From positions 5,856 through 69,855 of the forward strand of contig JAFQRL010000004.1 in assembly GCA_017410065.1 (NCBI GenBank): 64,000 nt of DNA. Direction: 5' to 3'. The position numbers and the translations under genes are program-made. The notes below the pieces were generated by a model. The model had not been told where the DNA came from. It was given only the letters and a program-made list of their open reading frames with translations, and did not search any database. Shown here one piece after another: positions 16,710 through 25,227 of this stretch. Every line of letters starts with the position of its first letter. Positions within the stretch are counted from its first letter, which is position 1. Source of the DNA: Clostridia bacterium (GTDB lineage Bacteria > Bacillota > Clostridia > Oscillospirales > CAG-272).

Positions 16710-17111
16710 CTACCCAAGCCAGAACACGAAGTTATCACCGCCGCCGTCGGTCGGGGTGATAAGTCGCGGGCTTCTCTCCCGTCTTACTGTGAGTGTGGTG
16801 ATCTCGGTGATTCCGCCCGTCTCTCGCCACTCTTCAAGATGCTTATCAAGGCTTACTGTGATACTGTCTTCGGTTATCGCCGTCACGGTGATGCTCACAA
16901 AATACGAGCCGTTTGCTCTGCCCGCAGGCAGGTCGTAGACCTCACCTACCTCAGGATCATCGTAGTAGACCAGGTACGGCTCGGAGCCTTCACAGCCCGA
17001 GATATGAGTGACCTCCACCCAAAGTCCAAGGGTCTTCCCTTCCTCTTTTACGCAAGAAAAAAGATTAAAGAATATTAGCGGAATTGTCAGTAAGAGAAAC
17101 AGCTTTTTCAT
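16710..17111 (-). CDS. small lipoprotein, function unknown
   Basis: MKKLFLLLTIPLIFFNLFSC signal peptide with a lipobox-like cysteine. AAAGGAG RBS before ATG 17111. Confidence 0.6.
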   Translation of the reverse strand: MKKLFLLLTIPLIFFNLFSCVKEEGKTLGLWVEVTHISGCEGSEPYLVYYDDPEVGEVYDLPAGRANGSYFVSITVTAITEDSITVSLDKHLEEWRETGGITEITTLTVRRERSPRLITPTDGGGDNFVFWLG

Positions 17112-17267
17112 TTTTCGTCTCCTTTTTGTGTTATTTCTTTCTACTTCAATACACGCAAAATAACGAATCAAGGTCACGGCTTTATCGTTTTTTCGTGCGA
17201 TAGGCGTAATTTGAAACAGGTGAGGAGATGCCGATGAGCTTGGGTTTGGGATTAACCGTATGAAAAA

Positions 17268-17320
17268 TCAAATAAAATACAAAAGAAAGAGCGCACCTCG
17301 GACTTTGCCGAGATGCGCTC
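17268..17320 (-). terminator. intrinsic terminator (GAGCGCA-CTCGG ... CCGAG-TGCGCTC followed by a U-rich run)
   Basis: Minus strand: hairpin followed by TTTCTTTTGTATTTTATTT. Lies between the island and the lipoprotein gene. Confidence 0.65.
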
Positions 17321-17387
17321 TCCGATCGATGATAAATATATCATACGACGGGTTCAACTTTTGACTCCTGCAAAAAAGTTTATCCTA

Positions 17388-17505
17388 TCAAGAACAAAAA
17401 GAAAAGCCGCTACATAACGGCACAATTTACAGATTATATCTGCTTGTAATCGTTATATAGCGACTTAAGTCGTATTTCTTTTAATTGTAAATGTAACGGC
17501 TTTTT
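17388..17505 (-). terminator. long imperfect inverted repeat plus U-run downstream of the GHKL gene
   Basis: Arms AAAAGCCGCTACAT..ATTTACA (17402-17431) and TGTAAATGTAACGGCTTTTT (17486-17505). Inner 12-bp palindrome CGACTTAAGTCG. The minus strand ends in UUUUCUUUUUGUU. Confidence 0.5.
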
Positions 17506-17533
17506 AGATCATCAACATATTTATCCTTAACAC

Positions 17534-19207
17534 TTATGAGCCGGTAGCGGACTTATCGTCAAGTTCCTTTAATAACTGAACCAGTCTGGCTTTAATATTT
17601 TCATACTCTAAAGTTAACTGATTCTTTGCCAAGGGCGTTAATAATGATGTGTGTCCTACTGCATCACGCATAGGCTTGTACACTGTTGCTGATCTGCTTA
17701 ATCCTGCGTTTTTGGGTTTATCAGCGGGAACCTTATCTATAAGATTTGCCAAATGTCCCATGTCAAGATAATAAACATCATCCGCGGATTGGCGAACATC
17801 GTATGAAATATTGGCAGCCCCTTTATTTGTACTTTCTTTTGCTCGCCATTTTTGAGCTTCTTCGGAAGCTTCTGTACTTAAGGGTTCGTGAGAGTAATCA
17901 ATATAGTGGCGCAATAAGTTCTCCGCAATAAAACATTCTGTGTATGACGGAACATTAAATTGAGCTTCTTCGGATAATTGTCTCGCCCATTCTTCAACGA
18001 TGCTTCCTTTACGGATGAATTTGCCGTCTGTTTCCATATCTTTTATTGTAGTGTTGAACAGTTCTTGCGCTTTACGGGCTTTGGGCGTAATTTTTTTGTT
18101 ATCTGGATCTCCGTCGCTTCCATACTTTCTTCTCAATTCATCCCACTCATCAATTATTTTTTTGAATATAGTTTCAAATTCAGAAAGAATCAATTTAAAT
18201 GACGGATCATCGGAAATTATACCCTCTCTACTACTGGTAAAAATATCTTTACCGGTTCCATCATCAAGAAAATCACAATGAATTTGACCATAAACGTAGT
18301 TTTCTACGATTCTGGCGGTGGGGATATGTCTTAAAATATCCCTTTCTCGCAATCTACCATTTACGAACAGATCAATTGTTACTTTTTCTTGTGTTCCTCT
18401 AATTTTTATTTGAGAAGGTTTCTCAACAGACGCTACATATCCCTTTAACTGAATCGGCTTTCTAATGTATTTGCATTCCAAGATATTTTTCATCGCATCA
18501 ACGAATGGATCGCTAATATCGTTAATTCGCCACAGAAATTGAGTCTTTTCGGAGAAATCACTGAGAAGTGACTCATCAATAAGGGTATCGTTTACATAAA
18601 TGTTGAATTTTTTGTCAATTAGAGAAAACCTAAAATATATTGCTATAGCCTTTTTTATGTATTCGATCGTATTACTGATCCCGTCAGAAATGGAGTGAAA
18701 TTCTAACAAAGTTCCCTTTGTAATATCATTCATTAAAGCAAAAGATTTATCATCCAGCGCTTCAAGGCGGTATTCTTGCGCAATCAAATCATCCGTAATG
18801 GCTTCATCTAATTTCGAATTATCAATTATACCGCCAACCACTTCAGAGGTTTGAGTCTTTGTAGCAATACTGACACGTTTTGCACAAGACAGCAACGCCA
18901 ATTTTCCAATGCCTTTTCGTCCTATAAAAGGTCGTCCCAAGAGCGATTTGCTTTCGCCGTTTTTGCGTTTTGAATAACCTATTTTCAGAAATTTATTTTG
19001 GAAATCTTCACTTGTCATACCATTACCATCATCTCGGATTGACATATAATTCGCATCTCGATCAATGATGATATATACGTTGTTGGCATCAGCATCCCAA
19101 GAATTGGAGATAGCTTCGCCCAAAACAGTGATTATATTTCTATAAAGATTTCTTCCCAAATGATTTAGTACGCTAAGCGAAATATTAAAGTTATAGCTGT
19201 TTTGCAT
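17534..19207 (-). CDS. GHKL (MutL/MORC-like, HATPase_c_3-type) ATPase with a C-terminal HEPN-like R-x4-H domain
   Basis: N-box LGEAISNSWDA, G1 box IRDDGNGM, G2 box GRKGIGKLA, MutL-like DLFVNGR in the middle region. C-terminal helical region has RDAVGH (nt 17668-17651) about 45 aa from the end. Confidence 0.65.
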   Translation of the reverse strand: MQNSYNFNISLSVLNHLGRNLYRNIITVLGEAISNSWDADANNVYIIIDRDANYMSIRDDGNGMTSEDFQNKFLKIGYSKRKNGESKSLLGRPFIGRKGIGKLALLSCAKRVSIATKTQTSEVVGGIIDNSKLDEAITDDLIAQEYRLEALDDKSFALMNDITKGTLLEFHSISDGISNTIEYIKKAIAIYFRFSLIDKKFNIYVNDTLIDESLLSDFSEKTQFLWRINDISDPFVDAMKNILECKYIRKPIQLKGYVASVEKPSQIKIRGTQEKVTIDLFVNGRLRERDILRHIPTARIVENYVYGQIHCDFLDDGTGKDIFTSSREGIISDDPSFKLILSEFETIFKKIIDEWDELRRKYGSDGDPDNKKITPKARKAQELFNTTIKDMETDGKFIRKGSIVEEWARQLSEEAQFNVPSYTECFIAENLLRHYIDYSHEPLSTEASEEAQKWRAKESTNKGAANISYDVRQSADDVYYLDMGHLANLIDKVPADKPKNAGLSRSATVYKPMRDAVGHTSLLTPLAKNQLTLEYENIKARLVQLLKELDDKSATGS

Positions 19208-19219
19208 ATCTTACCTCCG

Positions 19220-20269
19220 TTATATTTCAACGTTGTAATCATTTAAATGCTGCGCAATAGTTAATCCAATGACTTCTCCCAATCTAACCGGCACAGCATT
19301 TCCTATATGTCTTGCTATATCACTAAAGACAAACGGAGCGTCGGGATTGATGAAATTATAATCCATTGGGAATGTTTGAAGCAAAGCACCTTCGCGCAAA
19401 GACAATGCTCGATCTTGTTCCGGATGCCCATACCTACCTGTACCATAATTATAAAATTGAGTCGTTATAGTAGGACCGATTTGTTCCCATGTCATTCGAC
19501 CATACACGGAACTATATGTTTGTCCGCTTTCTTTTCGATGGCATGGACATCTAAGATTTTCAGGCCAATCTCGCCAAGTTCCTCCCGGGATGGAAGCTCT
19601 TATTCTTTGCAAATTTCGGTCTGATAATAATGCTGATCGATGCATCGGATCATTGGGATCTACCGCACCTGCTTCAATATGTGGCAAATTCTCAATGTAA
19701 TCACGCACATGTACTTCGTTGCGGTTGTGTGTTGGCTCAATAATGTTTATCGGGCCAAGCAACGAACCAACCAATACGAATCTTCGGCGTGTTTGAGGTA
19801 TTCCGTAATCGGGACAAAAAATAACTTTAGCATCAATGTGATAATTATTTCTTCTCAAAATCTCGAGAAATTGATTATAAACATCAGTCTCACGAATTTG
19901 TGGGACATTCTCCATAGATATTACGGTTGGATGTGTTTCCTCTATTAAGCGTCCAAATTCCAAAAGCAAATCATATTTTTCATCACGTTCATTTGCTTCT
20001 CGAAGCTTAAATCTCATCTGGGAAAAAGGTTGACACGGTGCGCATCCTACTAAAATTCGAGTAGTATCTTCATCGTACTTTTCTATGATTTCTTGTGCTG
20101 TTACTTCTCGAATATTTCGAATATTATAGTCAACCCCATTGTTATGCTCGTATGTAAATTGACAAGTTGGATCAATATCAAAACCAGCAACTACATTCAT
20201 ACCAGCATCTAATAATCCTCTCGTCAAACCTCCGACTCCGCAAAATAAATCAACAATTTGTGTTGGCAT
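19220..20269 (-). CDS. DNA (cytosine-5) methyltransferase (third in operon)
   Basis: Motif I DLFCGVGG, motif IV APCQPFS, motif VI ENV, motif VIII QTRRR, motif X GNAVP. Confidence 0.9.
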   Translation of the reverse strand: MPTQIVDLFCGVGGLTRGLLDAGMNVVAGFDIDPTCQFTYEHNNGVDYNIRNIREVTAQEIIEKYDEDTTRILVGCAPCQPFSQMRFKLREANERDEKYDLLLEFGRLIEETHPTVISMENVPQIRETDVYNQFLEILRRNNYHIDAKVIFCPDYGIPQTRRRFVLVGSLLGPINIIEPTHNRNEVHVRDYIENLPHIEAGAVDPNDPMHRSALLSDRNLQRIRASIPGGTWRDWPENLRCPCHRKESGQTYSSVYGRMTWEQIGPTITTQFYNYGTGRYGHPEQDRALSLREGALLQTFPMDYNFINPDAPFVFSDIARHIGNAVPVRLGEVIGLTIAQHLNDYNVEI

Positions 20270-20273
20270 TTTC

Positions 20274-21215
20274 TCACCTACCTATAATTTTGTCTGCAAT
20301 TTTTCTTATAATGGGTACACACACGGTATTTCCGCACTGTTTATATGCCTTTTCAAGAGAAATCCCCTTAAAAATATATTGCTTTGGAAATCCTTGAAAC
20401 GCAAGGCACTCCATAGGAGTAATCTTGCGAATGCCGAAATTGTCACGGATAATCGGGACACGGTCGTGGTAGGTTCCCATATTAGCTTTCAATGTGGGGC
20501 AAACCTCCCATTTCCGCATTGCCACACCGCTATCGTCGATTCGGTAAATTCCCGTTTTATCGACGATTTTCGCATTAAGCTCCTTAAAATATCGGCTGCT
20601 TGAGCCGTAGTAATAAATATCATCGTGTTTTACGTTGCGGTCAATAATGTCCTCAATCGTTGCTTCCATAGGCACTGCTTTGGGAAAAGCAAAGCAATCA
20701 CAATCCTCTATATTGAGAAACGCTACGATAAAAATCCGTGCGCGATTTTGAGGGATATTAACGTCAGTTGCATTTATCACCTTGCATTTAACGGAATACC
20801 CGAATTGAGCCAAGGTATTATAAATGACAAGAAAAGTCTTGCCGTTATCGTGTTCCATAAGGTTTTGCACATTTTCGAGAAACACCACTCTCGGACGCTT
20901 AACGTCAATGAAGCGAGAAATCTCGAAAAACAGATTTCCGCGCGGATCCTTGAATCCGCGCCGATAGCCCATAATTGAGAACGGTTGACACGGAAATCCT
21001 GCAACAAGAACATCAATATCGGAAAGCATATGCGGATCAATGTCACGTACATCTCCCTCAATAAGTTGCGTATTCGCGAAGTTATGGCGATATGTTTTAC
21101 AACAAGCAGAATCTATGTCATTTGCCCAAGCAATTTCATATCCAGCCTGTTCAAAACCAAGATCAATACCGCCAATTCCCGAAAACAAACTACCTACTTT
21201 CGGTTTGCTCATCAT
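20274..21215 (-). CDS. DNA (cytosine-5) methyltransferase (second in operon)
   Basis: Motif I SLFSGIGG, motif IV GFPCQPFS, motif VI ENV, motif VIII QNRARIF, motif X GNTV. Confidence 0.9.
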   Translation of the reverse strand: MMSKPKVGSLFSGIGGIDLGFEQAGYEIAWANDIDSACCKTYRHNFANTQLIEGDVRDIDPHMLSDIDVLVAGFPCQPFSIMGYRRGFKDPRGNLFFEISRFIDVKRPRVVFLENVQNLMEHDNGKTFLVIYNTLAQFGYSVKCKVINATDVNIPQNRARIFIVAFLNIEDCDCFAFPKAVPMEATIEDIIDRNVKHDDIYYYGSSSRYFKELNAKIVDKTGIYRIDDSGVAMRKWEVCPTLKANMGTYHDRVPIIRDNFGIRKITPMECLAFQGFPKQYIFKGISLEKAYKQCGNTVCVPIIRKIADKIIGR

Positions 21216-22303
21216 TTGATAAATCTGATCTGCAAGTTCAACTTCAAATAATATTTGCCGTTTTCCTTGTAAATGCTACCAAATTGATGTCTGCTCGTGC
21301 TTGCGGTTTCAAACTTGGTGTTCTTTACAAGATAATTCTCAAACTCGTTACGATTGAACAAGTGATAGCAAAGAACCTCTCCATCCTCACGGACGATAAT
21401 ATAACCGCCCGTTGCATCGGCAGTTCCATCCCATGCTCTGGAAGGAAGCATTCCAAGTGCGCTTTCGGTCAAAAACTTCTTGAATTTATACTGATAGAAC
21501 GGATGACCTTTGCTCAGGTTATAGTTCATCGGATTAGCAGCGACGATGGATTCAAGAGCCTTTTCAACAGTGTTAACACCTGTAGAATAATATCCCGTCA
21601 ACATATACGCACAGATTTGAGGAAGATCGCCATCAATCAAAAGCAAGTTGCTCTCAAATGTGTCATTTTCCATACCTGCGTATTTCAAACCGCATCCGGC
21701 ATCTGCGAGGTATGCCATTTTCTGCTTAAACAATTTAGAGCAAGATTCAAATCCAGCCGCAATTGCATCGTTGGGATTACCAGTAATCTCATAGATGAAG
21801 TTAGTGGTTTTGCCTGCATTTACCAGAGTAGAGGCACCACCAAGTCTTGATTTAATACTGAAGCCTTGTACAGACTCATACCCCGTGTTTATATCGTGAA
21901 TTTTGATGCGAATGTCAGCTTTGTCGCTCGATTTTGCCTTTAAAGTGCTTACACTGATTCTATCAAGAAATGCTTCGGTATCAACAGACGCAAAAGACGG
22001 GGCGTTAGCCGCAACGATCTCGTTGTAAAGCTTATCCGCTACACGTGCAAATTCATCGGAAGGAATGTCTATCAATGTTGCTGCGGTTTCGGTATTATAA
22101 ACCGACACTCGACCTGCGTTACGGTCAACACGAAATTCAAGAACACCGATATTCTCGGTTCTCACAATGTTGATGATGTTATAGAATACATCGTCCATTT
22201 TGTTCAAATCGGCATCTGCCGCATAGAGCTTACCGACCTCAAGCAAACGAAGAAATACGTAGATTTCACTCCATTCGCCTTTGTTTCCCGAAAGCTTAGG
22301 CAT
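21212..22303 (-). CDS. type II restriction endonuclease, HpaII-family-like (CCGG-type by family, specificity unverified)
   Basis: N-terminus LSGNKGEWSEIYVFLRLLEVGKLYAAD and the C-terminal LNLQIRF resemble R.HpaII-family proteins, from memory. The start is set at MPKLSG (ATG 22303) behind AAGGAGG and overlaps the upstream methyltransferase by 8 nt. Confidence 0.65.
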   Translation of the reverse strand: MPKLSGNKGEWSEIYVFLRLLEVGKLYAADADLNKMDDVFYNIINIVRTENIGVLEFRVDRNAGRVSVYNTETAATLIDIPSDEFARVADKLYNEIVAANAPSFASVDTEAFLDRISVSTLKAKSSDKADIRIKIHDINTGYESVQGFSIKSRLGGASTLVNAGKTTNFIYEITGNPNDAIAAGFESCSKLFKQKMAYLADAGCGLKYAGMENDTFESNLLLIDGDLPQICAYMLTGYYSTGVNTVEKALESIVAANPMNYNLSKGHPFYQYKFKKFLTESALGMLPSRAWDGTADATGGYIIVREDGEVLCYHLFNRNEFENYLVKNTKFETASTSRHQFGSIYKENGKYYLKLNLQIRFIK

Positions 22304-23300
22304 TATCAAGTACCTCCTTAATTCTTTCCGCAATTGCCGCTATGACATTTACGGTCACACTATTGCCGAACTGCTTATAAAGATGGGTATCTGCAAGAGG
22401 AAGAACGAAACTATCCGGGAATCCCTGCAAACGTGCCCATTCGCGAGGTGTCATTTTACGGATACCTTCTTTATTGATTTTTCCTTTAATGTGAGTGGTG
22501 GGAGCAAGGTTCTTCTGACGCTTATCTACCACAAGATTTCTTTCTCTGCCCATACCACCGCACACGATAGCACCAGCAACATCACTCCAATCGCGGATTT
22601 CGTAACCAAAACCGTTGCCCTTGGATTCGTGACGAGCCTTGTGGCGGCGGAGCGTTTCTACATATACATCACTTAAATAATACTTGGCGGGAACGGGGTT
22701 TTCTTCACGAATATTCCACAAACGCTTTGTATCGTCGGTCATTTCCGGGAAATCAAAGGTTTCGGGCGCAATATCGTTTCTAAACGCTACCACATAAATT
22801 CTTTCTCTATTTTGAGGAACTCCAAAATTCTTACTGTTCAAAACTTGATGAAATACCTTGTACCCGAGATCTTCAAAGGTCTTGCAAATAATCTTAAAGG
22901 TTCTGCCTCTATCGTGGATAACAAGTCCTTTTACGTTTTCGCAGAAGATAACCTTCGGCTTATGATACTCACAAATACGAGCCACATCCATAAAGAGTGT
23001 ACCGCGACACATACCTTTGTAGTTATCTTCAAACCCCATACGCTGTCCGGCAAGGCTGAACGCCTGACAAGGGAATCCCGCGAGGCAAATGTCAAATTCG
23101 GGAACATCCTTCTCATCAATTTTTGTTATATCACCTGCGATTGCAAAATCATCGTTAAAGTTTGCTTTATAGGTTTTCTGTGCATTTTCATCCCATTCGC
23201 ATACGAATACCGTATCAATGTCCTCACCGAAAGCTCTGTCAAAGCCGAGCCGGATGCCTCCGATGCCTGCGAATAAATCTATTGATCTTAACCCATTCAT
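22296..23300 (-). CDS. DNA (cytosine-5) methyltransferase (first in operon, likely cognate of the HpaII-like nuclease)
   Basis: Motif I DLFAGIGG, motif IV GFPCQAFS, motif VI ENV, motif VIII QNRERIY, motif X GNSV. Confidence 0.9.
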   Translation of the reverse strand: MNGLRSIDLFAGIGGIRLGFDRAFGEDIDTVFVCEWDENAQKTYKANFNDDFAIAGDITKIDEKDVPEFDICLAGFPCQAFSLAGQRMGFEDNYKGMCRGTLFMDVARICEYHKPKVIFCENVKGLVIHDRGRTFKIICKTFEDLGYKVFHQVLNSKNFGVPQNRERIYVVAFRNDIAPETFDFPEMTDDTKRLWNIREENPVPAKYYLSDVYVETLRRHKARHESKGNGFGYEIRDWSDVAGAIVCGGMGRERNLVVDKRQKNLAPTTHIKGKINKEGIRKMTPREWARLQGFPDSFVLPLADTHLYKQFGNSVTVNVIAAIAERIKEVLDNA

Positions 23301-23707
23301 TTTGAATGTACCGCCTTTTCAATTATATCTGCGCATTGCGCCGTGTTCTTTTTGATTTCATTGCCCCAAAATCGGATGACCGTCCATCCCTCGGATTCAA
23401 GCTTTGCCGTCACTTCTGCATCACGTTCCATATTTCGTTCGATTTTAGGTATCCAAAACTCTTGATGTGACTTGAAATCTTTCTTTCGTTCTTCCCAATT
23501 GTATCCGTGCCAAAATTCGCTGTCACAAAAGACGGCAATCTTTTTGCCTATAAATACAATATCGGGCTTCCCATGTATGCGGTTCACATTCTTTCTGTAG
23601 CGAATACCGCGCGACCATAGTTCTTTACGCAACAAGACCTCTATCTTTGAATCCTTGTTTTTAACTTGCTGCATATTGTAACTAATCTGCTCTTTTGTCT
23701 TTTGCAT
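23297..23707 (-). CDS. vsr: Vsr-family very-short-patch repair endonuclease (divergent)
   Basis: KIEVLLRKELWSRGIRYRKN, catalytic-Asp context GKPDIVF, FWHG and GWTVIRFW motifs. Overlaps the next methyltransferase by ATGA. Confidence 0.8.
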   Translation of the reverse strand: MQKTKEQISYNMQQVKNKDSKIEVLLRKELWSRGIRYRKNVNRIHGKPDIVFIGKKIAVFCDSEFWHGYNWEERKKDFKSHQEFWIPKIERNMERDAEVTAKLESEGWTVIRFWGNEIKKNTAQCADIIEKAVHSK

Positions 23708-23708
23708 A

Positions 23709-23912
23709 TCAGTTATTAGTAAGAGAAGTGATGTCTATATTATTCTTCTCGCACAAATCATTGAACGCTTTTTGTGCTTTATAACTCGGTTCGCATTTTC
23801 CTTTTTCCCAACGGTTCACCGTTGCAAAAGAAACACCAAGTTCTTTCGCCATAGCTTCTTGGCTTAAAAACAACTGTTTTCTTACGGCTTGCATCTTTTC
23901 AGCAAATGTCAT
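23709..23912 (-). CDS. XRE-family helix-turn-helix protein, probable R-M controller (C) protein
   Basis: 67 aa. LSQEAMAKELGVSFATVNRWEKGK is a classic HTH_3 motif. It is the first gene of the R-M operon. Confidence 0.8.
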   Translation of the reverse strand: MTFAEKMQAVRKQLFLSQEAMAKELGVSFATVNRWEKGKCEPSYKAQKAFNDLCEKNNIDITSLTNN

Positions 23913-23945
23913 TTTTGCACCTCTCGGTATAATTGATTATAACAT

Positions 23946-23974
23946 CATTATAACATGTTTATAGCAATCTTTCA
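23946..23974 (-). promoter_or_regulatory. sigma-A type promoter of the R-M operon (TTGAAA - 17 bp - TATAAT)
   Basis: Minus strand reads TTGAAAGATTGCTATAAACATGTTATAAT. A second TTATAAT lies 11 bp downstream. Confidence 0.6.
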
Positions 23975-23980
23975 AGAGGA

Positions 23981-24028
23981 TTTAAGAATATTGTCATATT
24001 TCGCGTTAAGAATATTGTCATATTTCGC
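23981..24028. promoter_or_regulatory. two perfect tandem 24-bp copies of TTAAGAATATTGTCATATTTCGCG, candidate operator (C-box-like)
   Basis: Perfect direct repeat abutting the -35. Each unit contains the inverted repeat AATAT-TGTC-ATATT. Confidence 0.55.
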
Positions 24029-24161
24029 GTGGAAAAATACACATCAAAAATGAAGAGTTAAATACAAATTCATTAGCGCCCCTAAAAGCGTATTTGAAAA
24101 GCCTTGTACAACAATACTTTTTATTTTCTATTTTGCCACGTTCTACCCCTGCTTTTGATGT

Positions 24162-24190
24162 AAAAAGCGGCGAGGACAAGCCCCGCCGCC
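24162..24190 (-). terminator. intrinsic terminator after the small island gene
   Basis: Minus strand reads GGCGGCGGGG-CTTGT-CCTCGCCGC followed by TTTTTAC. Confidence 0.7.
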
Positions 24191-24195
24191 GTAGG

Positions 24196-24462
24196 TTATT
24201 CGGTTAATGTTTCTATGGCGATTTGTATACCAAGTTTGAAAGCGTCTCTAAAGATTGCTTCCTCTGCATAACTCGCATACTCACTCCAACAATCATCAAA
24301 CTTTTCAAAAATCTCCTTTTGCTCATCCGTCATTCTTTTGAGCAGATCATCGTGATGCCGAGCCATATATTCCATAAGCTCTTTCATTTCGGGCGAGTTG
24401 TTGCGACTATCGGTTTCCGGACACACATTTCCGTGCCAAAATTCTTTGATGACCGACTTCAT
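24196..24462 (-). CDS. small conserved hypothetical protein of the kind found in Firmicutes transposon/ICE accessory regions
   Basis: MKSVIKEFWHGNVCPE...DAFKLGIQIAIE pattern. GGGAGGTG RBS. The ATG overlaps the preceding reading frame as ATGA. The ORF-track start at 24531 is too long. Confidence 0.6.
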   Translation of the reverse strand: MKSVIKEFWHGNVCPETDSRNNSPEMKELMEYMARHHDDLLKRMTDEQKEIFEKFDDCWSEYASYAEEAIFRDAFKLGIQIAIETLTE

Positions 24463-24831
24463 TGACAGATCACCTCCCGCAAAACGATCTCTTCCGCGCT
24501 CGCCTTGATGTTGTTCATCTCGGCTACCCATTTGAGCGTGTCAAAAGCCTTTAATTCTTCGTCCATGCCGCATTTGCGGGCAAGGTTAGCAACTATTGAA
24601 TTCGACCATTTCATTGGCTTGTGCGTCGATTTCGTGGAGGTGTGCGTTGAGCTTTCCTTTGGTCAAGAGAGTGGTGTATGTACCTCTCTTGTGCTGCTTG
24701 ATGTAGTCAAGATGAAGCAGTCCGTATTTGCCGATACGATGCTCGGTAGAGTTCGTTTCGTTGAAAATCGGGTAGTATTTCTCTCCACGAAGCTCGTATT
24801 TAATGCCGTTTTCGATAATGTACTTTTCCAT
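24459..24831 (-). pseudogene. tnpV: TnpV-family transposon accessory gene, interrupted by a frameshift
   Basis: The N-terminal ORF (24586-24831) ends ...LTKGKLNAHLHEIDAQANEMVEFNSC*. A different frame continues SIVANLARKCGMDEELKAFDTLKWVAEMNNIKASAEEIVLREVICQ* to 24459. Together they match the full-length TnpV pattern, implying a 1-nt indel near 24600-24612. Confidence 0.65.
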
Positions 24832-25227
24832 AATTCATATTCCTTTCAAGTGTTGATTTTACTTGAAAACATAAGGCTTTGGCACTTTTGGAATATGTAT
24901 GGATACTGTCGGCAGTTATCGAGTTTCGTTATGACTATCCGTCCCAAACAGGAATAATACGAACCCTGAGCAATCAAGGTTCGTATTATTCTTTACAATG
25001 GCTTATTTGTGGGTGAAGATTAAGCGATAGAATTATAAAAGGTGGGACACAAGATCCCACCCAAATCTAATAAAGAGCTACCTCGAATGCGACTTTGCAT
25101 TTAAGACAGCTCTTTTTTATCTTATTTAGTGCCTGCCACAAGCTCCAAGGTCGCGCCATCAAAGCGGTGTGCCGAGGTCTTCTTGGCGAGTGCCTTTATC
25201 ATTTATTTATCGTTTTAAGTATTTCGA

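Follow-up and report, generated by a model that had tools for sequence, protein, structure and literature searches.

A seven-gene methyltransferase operon of a Clostridia bacterium is probably a composite of an HpaII-type restriction unit and a mobile methyltransferase-GHKL protein cassette

Results

Organization of the seven-gene operon

We analyzed a 64,000-nucleotide (nt) stretch of the genome of a Clostridia bacterium (Oscillospirales, CAG-272; assembly GCA_017410065.1, contig JAFQRL010000004.1, positions 5,856 to 69,855), hereafter called the window, in which seven genes on the minus strand form a tight run from 17534 to 23912. In the direction of reading they encode a C-protein-like helix-turn-helix (HTH) protein, here C (23709-23912, 67 amino acids, aa), a Vsr protein (23297-23707, 136 aa), the C5-cytosine methyltransferase M1 (22296-23300, 334 aa), the HpaII-family type II endonuclease R (21212-22303, 363 aa counted from its ATG), two further C5-methyltransferases, M2 (20274-21215, 313 aa) and M3 (19220-20269, 349 aa), and a protein of 557 aa termed G (17534-19207), which consists of a GHKL ATPase, an S5-like middle domain and a helical C-terminal domain. 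Consecutive genes are joined, in this order, by a 1-nt gap, overlaps of 4, 8 and 4 nt, and gaps of 4 and 12 nt. All open reading frames (ORFs) and junctions are exactly as given in a first-pass annotation of this DNA, which had interpreted the operon as a classical HpaII-type system onto which a second, nuclease-less module of M2, M3 and a GHKL-HEPN protein had been grafted. Our results suggest that the operon is probably a head-to-tail composite of two independent 5-methylcytosine (m5C) restriction-modification (R-M)-type cassettes, C-Vsr-M1-R-M2 and M3-G, carried by a horizontally acquired island, with M3 marking self and G acting as the effector.

The island has a GC content of ~39%, while its flanks have ~50%, and the low-GC stretch extends from about 17.0 to 25.0 kb of the window. 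Within the operon, the GC content of third codon positions (GC3) is 0.27-0.32 in M3 and G versus 0.35-0.45 in C through M2. Independent gene calls on two independent ENA metagenome assemblies gave the same seven products at an identical locus. The gene order was found again in the loci L001/L012, L009 and L044; since it recurs in other genomes, the arrangement is not explained by chance.

The HpaII-type cassette includes M2

The HTH protein was matched by Pfam HTH_3 (E 7e-9) and weakly by the PADLOC model Control_protein (E 0.005), and the Vsr protein scored 135 bits with TIGR00632 (cut-off 98) and E 8e-25 with Pfam Vsr. The Pfam family DNA_methylase was found in M1 (E 4.5e-98), M2 (E 1.4e-87) and M3 (E 1.5e-56), and motifs I, IV (PCQ), VI (ENV), VIII (QxRxR) and X (GNxV) can be read in each of the three translations, in agreement with the earlier claim of three complete C5-methyltransferases; their target recognition domains (TRDs) are mutually unrelated. 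R matched Pfam RE_HpaII (PF09561) over the full length of the profile (positions 1-359 of 359, E 3.5e-134) as well as the PADLOC model REase_II (E 1e-92).

A metagenome scan with M2 yielded only relatives of 29-51% identity and was replaced by look-ups of close homologs. These (83-86% identity; loci L096-L100 from four independent assemblies) all stand directly 3' of an RE_HpaII gene, the start codon falling at the RE_HpaII stop codon in every case. The unit at these loci reads (HTH)-Vsr-M1-R-M2, and M3 and G were not found nearby. Small HTH genes stand 5' of Vsr-M1-R-M2 in L044, L096, L098 and L100.

This arrangement bears directly on the possibility that M2, M3 and G constitute a single nuclease-less module of paired methyltransferases, in the style of systems for asymmetric sites, added to an HpaII system with one methyltransferase. 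The three genes are contiguous in the window (4-nt and 12-nt gaps), and the order M2-M3-G also occurs in L001/L012 and L009. However, M2-type genes follow RE_HpaII directly in five loci that contain neither M3 nor G, and M3-G stands without M2 at about 70 of the 80 loci surveyed below. In L005-L008 and L011, Vsr-M1'-orf91-R leads directly into M3-G and M2 is absent, and in L044 and L028 a gene for a 310-aa protein (c25) separates M2 from M3. We consider the paired module hardly tenable: the second module of the first-pass annotation stands as such, but M2 is not part of it. Since M2 homologs are tied to RE_HpaII, M3 alone is tied to G, and GC3 splits between the same genes, the operon parses into C-Vsr-M1-R-M2 and M3-G. 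It is a juxtaposition of two cassettes within a defense island, in itself ordinary, and not a new seven-gene system.

The first cassette resembles the HpaII R-M system in its full-length RE_HpaII nuclease, in the Vsr and C5-methyltransferase genes upstream in the same order, and in the avoidance of CCGG in the host DNA; it differs by the addition of M2 3' of R and of the HTH regulator 5' of Vsr. The HpaII system targets CCGG, and its genes are reportedly arranged as vsr-M-R. In the ScrFI system, two methyltransferases flank the nuclease gene.

Comparison of this cassette between loci indicates that its nuclease varies more than its methyltransferases. When the locus is aligned at the nucleotide level with L009, L096 and L100, Vsr-M1 and M2 are covered at 78-89% identity but R (21202-22250) is skipped, and between loci with methyltransferases of 72-96% identity (M1, 72-96%) the R proteins share only 34-45%. 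By this comparison, R is a swapped allele relative to L009, L096 and L100, which suggests that the nuclease diversifies in a cassette-like manner between conserved methyltransferases. M1 is the cognate methyltransferase of R. It and the M1' of L005, which are otherwise 40% identical, have the TRD block KYYLS..Y.ETL.RHKARHESKGNGFGY in common. For M2, a GCGC specificity was considered on the basis of M.HhaI and rejected: the alignment is full-length, but the M2 TRD is unlike that of M.HhaI, so that this specificity cannot be inferred.

Three further features of the HpaII-type units were observed in other genomes. In two of them (L098, 3496-4932; L100, 3439-4857), Vsr is fused to the M1-type methyltransferase in a protein of 472-478 aa. 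The 310-aa protein of L044 (6877-7809) and L028, where its gene lies directly 5' of M3, has no Pfam match; reading by eye, a possible D...E-x-K motif (YGYDIW...GLEIKN) can be seen, and the gene, which is not present in the window, may encode a further nuclease missing from the lineage of the window. A 572-aa GHKL protein encoded 5' of the HpaII unit in L098 was examined as a relative of G and discarded, as the likeness is confined to the ATP-binding motif.

M3 and G form a mobile two-gene cassette

More than 4600 relatives of G were found in protein clusters at 90% identity (E up to 0.001), and almost all of the 120 best ones listed span the full length, with 66-96% identity. To survey genomic loci, the best 80 of 374 G matches among species-representative genomes were taken, and every ORF in them was classified against the seven proteins of the window. 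The 80 matches are full-length (51-96% identity) and come from Bacillota, Bacteroidota, Chloroflexota, Actinomycetota, Pseudomonadota, Planctomycetota, candidate-phyla bacteria and one archaeal metagenome-assembled genome. In 79 of them, an ortholog of M3 (44-99% identity) lies immediately 5' of G on the same strand; in the sole exception, L016, an M3-like methyltransferase (66% identity) is located nearby, beside a second GHKL protein. Clustering of the flanking ORFs returned G, the methyltransferase and Vsr as the only recurrent genes. M3 is the obligate partner of G. The first-pass annotation had named a lack of recurrent linkage between homologs of the 557-aa protein and paired m5C methyltransferases as an outcome that would refute it; this outcome was observed, as the linkage is to M3 only.

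The pair was also found on a plasmid and on viral contigs. On the 20-kb conjugative plasmid pBM153, M3-G occurs alone, annotated as 'DNA cytosine methyltransferase' and 'ATP-binding protein', and the gene 5' of M3 is a divergently oriented recombinase gene. About 10 viral contigs of IMG/VR (L105-L114) likewise carry the pair.

M3-G often lies directly 3' of another complete restriction or defense unit, namely RE_HaeIII, RE_MjaI, HNH, AAA_15+DUF3226 or RE_HpaII. These neighbors, together with the ATPase and HEPN-like architecture of G described below, would suit a guard of the PrrC/RloC kind, that is, a latent ATPase-HEPN RNase which is restrained by the neighboring restriction complex, here of HpaII type, and freed when a phage disables this complex; such a guard role has been proposed for GHKL-Ymh proteins (PMC3710099). 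However, the upstream partner differs in every lineage and often has no relation to restriction; it is a housekeeping gene in several loci and the divergent recombinase gene on pBM153. The gene 5' of M3 lies on the same strand in 54 of 72 loci, which we rejected as a sign of functional coupling since it is within the normal range of operon-level co-orientation in bacteria. Because the sole constant partner of G is the methyltransferase, which guards of the PrrC type do not need, we regard this explanation as unlikely.

Two loci, L016 (975-6888) and L111 (1959-7632), combine one methyltransferase of the M3 clade with two GHKL proteins, one of G type and one of 628-636 aa whose C-terminus differs from that of G. 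The presence of two GHKL effectors beside one methyltransferase suggests that different effectors read the same mark. On the Rhodococcus plasmid pRB98 (L101, 566-3373), a methyltransferase of the M3 clade (53% identity) is convergent to genes for a MAE_28990/MAE_18760 HEPN-like nuclease and a DUF262 protein, an arrangement which indicates that this clade also partners HEPN nucleases without a GHKL domain.

The N-terminal half of G is shared with the BbrUII/HgiDII family

The GHKL ATPase and the S5-like middle domain comprise approximately residues 1-330 of G (18218-19207, minus strand), as judged from profiles, Foldseek searches and invariant columns. G matched Pfam HATPase_c_3 (E 1e-19), and residues 5-366 aligned with positions 1-368 of the 659 positions of NF050001, the NCBIfam model of the BbrUII/HgiDII restriction enzymes, at 297.7 bits, with positions 369-659 unmatched. 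A whole protein has to reach 550 bits with this model, so that G falls short, although its score greatly exceeds what GHKL proteins in general reach, as with the 30 bits of MutL. The PADLOC REase_II models matched the N-terminal two-thirds of G (E 1e-43). Among 39 relatives of G at 32-51% identity, E31, N35, D38 and D59 of GHKL motifs I and II are invariant, and the glycines G61, G63, G96, G99 and G101 of motifs II and III are conserved in at least 90%. In the AlphaFold model of G, with a predicted local distance difference test (pLDDT) score of 75, the GHKL domain and the S5-like middle domain are followed by a long linker helix and a disordered stretch, and the C-terminal domain is all-helical. 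The GHKL and S5-like domains of the model were matched by Foldseek to Hsp90/TRAP1, MORC2/3 and SMCHD1 (E 1e-11 to 1e-9). Thus, the statement that the operon contains a single gene resembling a restriction nuclease does not hold, as the N-terminal two-thirds of G are homologous to genuine type II enzymes.

The relationship extends to the methyltransferases. Viral contigs encode proteins that exceed the BbrUII/HgiDII cut-off over their full length (703-754 bits), and these proteins adjoin methyltransferases that are 47-52% identical to M3. The TRD of M3 is 47-65% identical to those of methyltransferases beside genuine BbrUII/HgiDII members and 47-61% identical to those of distant M3 orthologs linked to G, so that the TRDs of the sister family are equally close; in most comparisons they exceed the catalytic core in conservation. 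The shared ATPase half and the shared methyltransferase clade identify M3-G as a sister of the BbrUII/HgiDII R-M systems with a different C-terminal half. Both are two-gene cassettes of a methyltransferase and a GHKL protein, sometimes accompanied by Vsr.

R.HgiDII has been described as carrying a GHKL domain at its N-terminus, with the C-terminus left unassigned (PMC2441816). A genuine BbrUII/HgiDII enzyme of our collection (L115, 5992-7977) showed a weak match to the Pfam family SduA_C at residues 479-550 (E 7e-5), as did that of L139 (E 0.0035). This likeness may assign the nuclease domain of R.HgiDII, long of 'unknown fold'.

The GHKL-S5 architecture is also that of MutL, and for E. coli MutL a functional link to Vsr has been discussed (PMC2292703). 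Vsr was found in about 20 of the surveyed loci and follows G directly in at least 10 (10 of the 71 loci with a scored downstream neighbor), and does so in four viral loci as well. G might hence be regarded as a MutL-like accessory to Vsr in the repair of T:G mismatches arising from m5C deamination, with a role in repair and not in defense. Yet most M3-G pairs have no adjacent Vsr, the MutL model TIGR00585 scored 30 bits (cut-off 180) and covered only residues 27-75 of G, and profile searches found no MutL C-terminal domain in G. Moreover, M3-G is mobile, with copies carried by plasmids and phage-like contigs, and has defense genes as neighbors, and a matchmaker would not need the invariant nuclease-like motif described in the next section. 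A repair function is accordingly very improbable.

The C-terminal domain of G is probably HEPN-like

The all-alpha C-terminal domain covers residues 403-557 of G (17537-18001, minus strand; AF2 model, pLDDT 81). Within it, Y422, E429, N430, R433, R514 and H519 are invariant in the 39 relatives. The last two belong to an Rx4H motif, R514-D-A-V-G-H519 (17651-17668, minus strand), at the C-terminal end of a helix, with the consensus R-[ND]-x3-H-T. HEPN RNases need to dimerize through the Rx4-6H motif, and RnlA is active only when two HEPN domains bring their motifs together (PMC8266594); the position of the Rx4H motif on its helix in G and the requirement for an acidic or basic pair upstream of it resemble those of RnlA. 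HEPN_Swt1 was the only non-GHKL Pfam family matched by more than one member in a scan of full-length relatives (3 of 39, best E 7e-4), and it was matched by 2 of 35 isolated C-termini (best E 4e-3). The top Foldseek match of the C-terminal model was the HEPN protein Csm6 (E 0.9). Taken together, we consider a Swt1-like HEPN domain probable.

Several results weigh against this assignment. Other Pfam families gave noise-level matches to the C-termini at E-values like those of HEPN_Swt1, and the C-terminus of G itself returned noise only at E up to 10. Foldseek searches of the C-terminal model against PDB and BFVD found nothing significant, and the C-terminal profile run against PDB sequences retrieved only ferritin and a yeast protein (E >0.1). 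When the profile was compared by hhalign with our alignment of MAE_28990/MAE_18760 HEPN domains, only the Rx4H motif aligned, at a probability of 0.4%. Of the HEPN assignment of the first-pass annotation, the Rx4H motif is upheld; the results of the sequence and structure searches are weak.

An exhaustive search with the C-terminal domain found it only in the architecture of G, so that no other gene context informs on it. Four relatives of G (P0193, P0209, P0236 and P0255; alignment columns ~615-680) carry a cysteine-rich, zinc-ribbon-like insert (CxxC...CxxC) within the helical domain.

The statistical weakness of the HEPN evidence leaves room for a more conventional explanation, namely that M3-G is an ordinary type II R-M system and G a site-specific DNA endonuclease like HgiDII and BbrUII, the C-terminus being a new DNase or DNA-recognition fold. 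The nearest characterized relatives of G are DNA restriction enzymes (PMC2441816), and M3 belongs to the same methyltransferase clade as the partners of HgiDII and BbrUII. On the other hand, the weak similarity of the sister C-terminus to SduA_C, a PD-(D/E)xK family, is absent from G, whose C-terminus is all-helical with the invariant R-[ND]-x3-H typical of HEPN RNases. We know of no established HEPN DNase. The HEPN enzymes in the literature cited here are RNases. We therefore give the DNA endonuclease explanation a rather low probability, though a higher one than either the guard or the repair function. The description of the second module as nuclease-less is not supported, since G shares its ATPase half with BbrUII/HgiDII (298 bits) and has invariant, catalytic-looking residues in its C-terminus.

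Candidate recognition sites

CCGG occurs 63 times in the window versus 292 expected, a 4.6-fold under-representation that ranked as the strongest depletion of a 4-base palindrome and fits prolonged exposure to a CCGG nuclease; judged indirectly from this depletion and the family of R, the first cassette probably recognizes CCGG. Three other 4-base palindromes are also rare (observed/expected: GGCC 41/236, CATG 13/140, CTAG 10/54). The strong avoidance of these four palindromes indicates that the lineage has long been exposed to several restriction specificities.

M.HgiDII is an m5C methyltransferase with the target GTCGAC (PMC5867850). Because M3 falls into the M.HgiDII/M.BbrUII clade, its probable target is GTCGAC or a site closely related to it. 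This prediction has to be set against two points. A TRD identity of 47-65% does not guarantee that M3 shares the specificity, and GTCGAC is not significantly avoided in the 64-kb window, where it was observed 5 times, versus 11.4 in shuffles and 8.3 under a trinucleotide model. The deficit shrinks under the latter since TCGA itself is depleted.

Putative expression signals and neighboring genes

The best-scoring sigma-70-type promoter-like site within 17000-25200 lies 5' of the HTH gene at 23947-23975 on the minus strand (TTGAAA-17-TATAAT with an extended TG; 11 of 12 consensus matches). On the same strand 3' of G, a first terminator-like hairpin with a T-run is located at 17396-17421 (hairpin 17421-17406), followed by a second, stronger one with 16 pairs at 17286-17323. 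These putative signals are consensus matches only. Shine-Dalgarno sequences are strong 5' of C, R, M3 and G, while the starts of Vsr, M1 and M2 lie at or beside overlapping stop/start junctions.

Just 5' of the -35 element, the 24-bp sequence TTAAGAATATTGTCATATTTCGCG is repeated perfectly in tandem (two copies, 23982-24029), and each copy contains an AATAT-N4-ATATT palindrome. The span 23933-24029 further includes a doubled -10-like box, ATGTTATAAT, and L096 has a similar doubled box, TGCTATAATG, 5' of its C-like gene. The tandem repeat and the doubled boxes may be operators for the HTH protein.

Beside the island, two small minus-strand genes (24196-24831) encode a TnpV-family protein of 81 aa and a DUF6809 protein. 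Going by its Pfam name, TnpV is a transposon-encoded family, and the two genes may be what is left of an element that brought the island.

Discussion

The combination described by the first-pass annotation was thought not to have been described experimentally. Indeed, our literature searches found no experimental study of G; its general kind, however, is already known from comparative genomics. GHKL 'paraMORC' proteins that occur with C5-methyltransferases and Vsr (PMC2292703), putative type II enzymes with a GHKL N-terminus and varied C-termini (PMC2441816), a two-component-like set of a C5-methyltransferase and a HATPase_c_3 protein (PMC8011034), and GHKL-HEPN(Ymh) fusions in R-M neighborhoods (Anantharaman et al. 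2013, PMC3710099; the R.NmeAIP family in PMC2441816) have been reported. Predictions of GHKL-HEPN fusions associated with R-M systems date from 2008 and 2013. G resembles the paraMORC GHKL-HEPN(Ymh) proteins in its GHKL-S5 ATPase, its C-terminal HEPN-type domain and its position next to a methyltransferase, and in being known from comparative genomics only. It differs from them in that none of 39 relatives matched Hypoth_Ymh (PF09509), even at E up to 1, the only HEPN match being Swt1-like and weak, and in that its constant partner is one C5-methyltransferase clade instead of a full R-M complex. Within this group, G stands apart as an un-named member with a non-Ymh C-terminus and a fixed methyltransferase clade.

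An experimentally validated parallel in architecture is the Shedu type I-D/paraMORC3 protein VcSduA, a GHKL ATPase joined to a DUF4263 nuclease (PMC12137116). In both proteins an N-terminal GHKL ATPase module would control a C-terminal nuclease-type effector within one polypeptide, but VcSduA needs no methyltransferase and carries a PD-(D/E)xK DNase, whereas G has an obligate methyltransferase partner and a HEPN-like domain. PrrC and RloC, which have been proposed as functional analogs (PMC3710099), are likewise ATPase-HEPN RNase fusions tied genetically to R-M systems. They contain an ABC ATPase instead of a GHKL domain and either form part of a type I restriction complex or are guarded by one, while the methyltransferase is the sole constant partner of G. 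In the BbrUII/HgiDII systems, finally, the C-terminus is weakly Shedu-like and unrelated to the all-helical Rx4H domain of G.

On the basis of these comparisons, the first cassette would be a type II system of the HpaII family under HTH control, with a C5-methyltransferase on either side of the nuclease and Vsr repairing deamination damage. The second would be a mobile two-gene cassette in which M3 marks the host DNA and G is its toxic or effector partner, the nuclease half of the BbrUII/HgiDII enzymes having been replaced in G by the helical HEPN-like domain. Like other GHKL-S5 proteins, G would dimerize in an ATP-dependent manner as a clamp on unmethylated target DNA, which would join the two C-terminal domains into a composite Rx4H active site. 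The site would then cut nucleic acid, most likely RNA, with an outcome resembling abortive infection; RNA is favored by the HEPN precedent, and DNA is the alternative in view of the sister family. We tentatively propose, as a possibility that falls short of being probable, that M3-G is an R-M-like system with a non-DNase restriction arm, in which the GHKL clamp senses missing M3 methylation, assembles a HEPN RNase and shuts the infected cell down.

Further points count against parts of this interpretation. Methylation reading by G and its substrate are predictions from homology, and the nearest characterized relatives have DNA and not RNA as their substrate. That the whole operon forms a single transcript is a prediction from gene spacing and consensus signals. 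The HpaII-type unit has a second methyltransferase, and HpaII-like systems with a single one, such as FpsJI, are self-sufficient (PMC11837570). The division of the operon into two cassettes, the M3-G linkage, the homologies and the invariant residues are observations, whereas the recognition sites, the sensing of methylation by G and its substrate are inferences.

For a restriction-type gene pair, M3-G is unusually conserved, with more than 50% identity across phyla, and it is very common, ranging from gut Clostridia through Bacteroidota and Chloroflexota to candidate-phyla bacteria, plasmids and phage-like contigs. The NCBI label of G is nevertheless merely 'ATP-binding protein', and Pfam holds no model of its C-terminal domain. 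For genetic access to gut anaerobes, the operon predicts that three distinct m5C specificities would have to be matched, probably CCGG, probably a GTCGAC-like site, and a third. Abundant, highly conserved and easy to test, M3-G could couple the readout of methylation to RNA cleavage. If this is true, methylation-based discrimination between self and non-self would be linked directly to RNA cleavage, and M3-G behind other restriction systems, here of HpaII type, would form a second-line abortive layer. If G is a methylation-gated RNase, restriction-modification and abortive infection would be joined in an easily cloned two-gene cassette.

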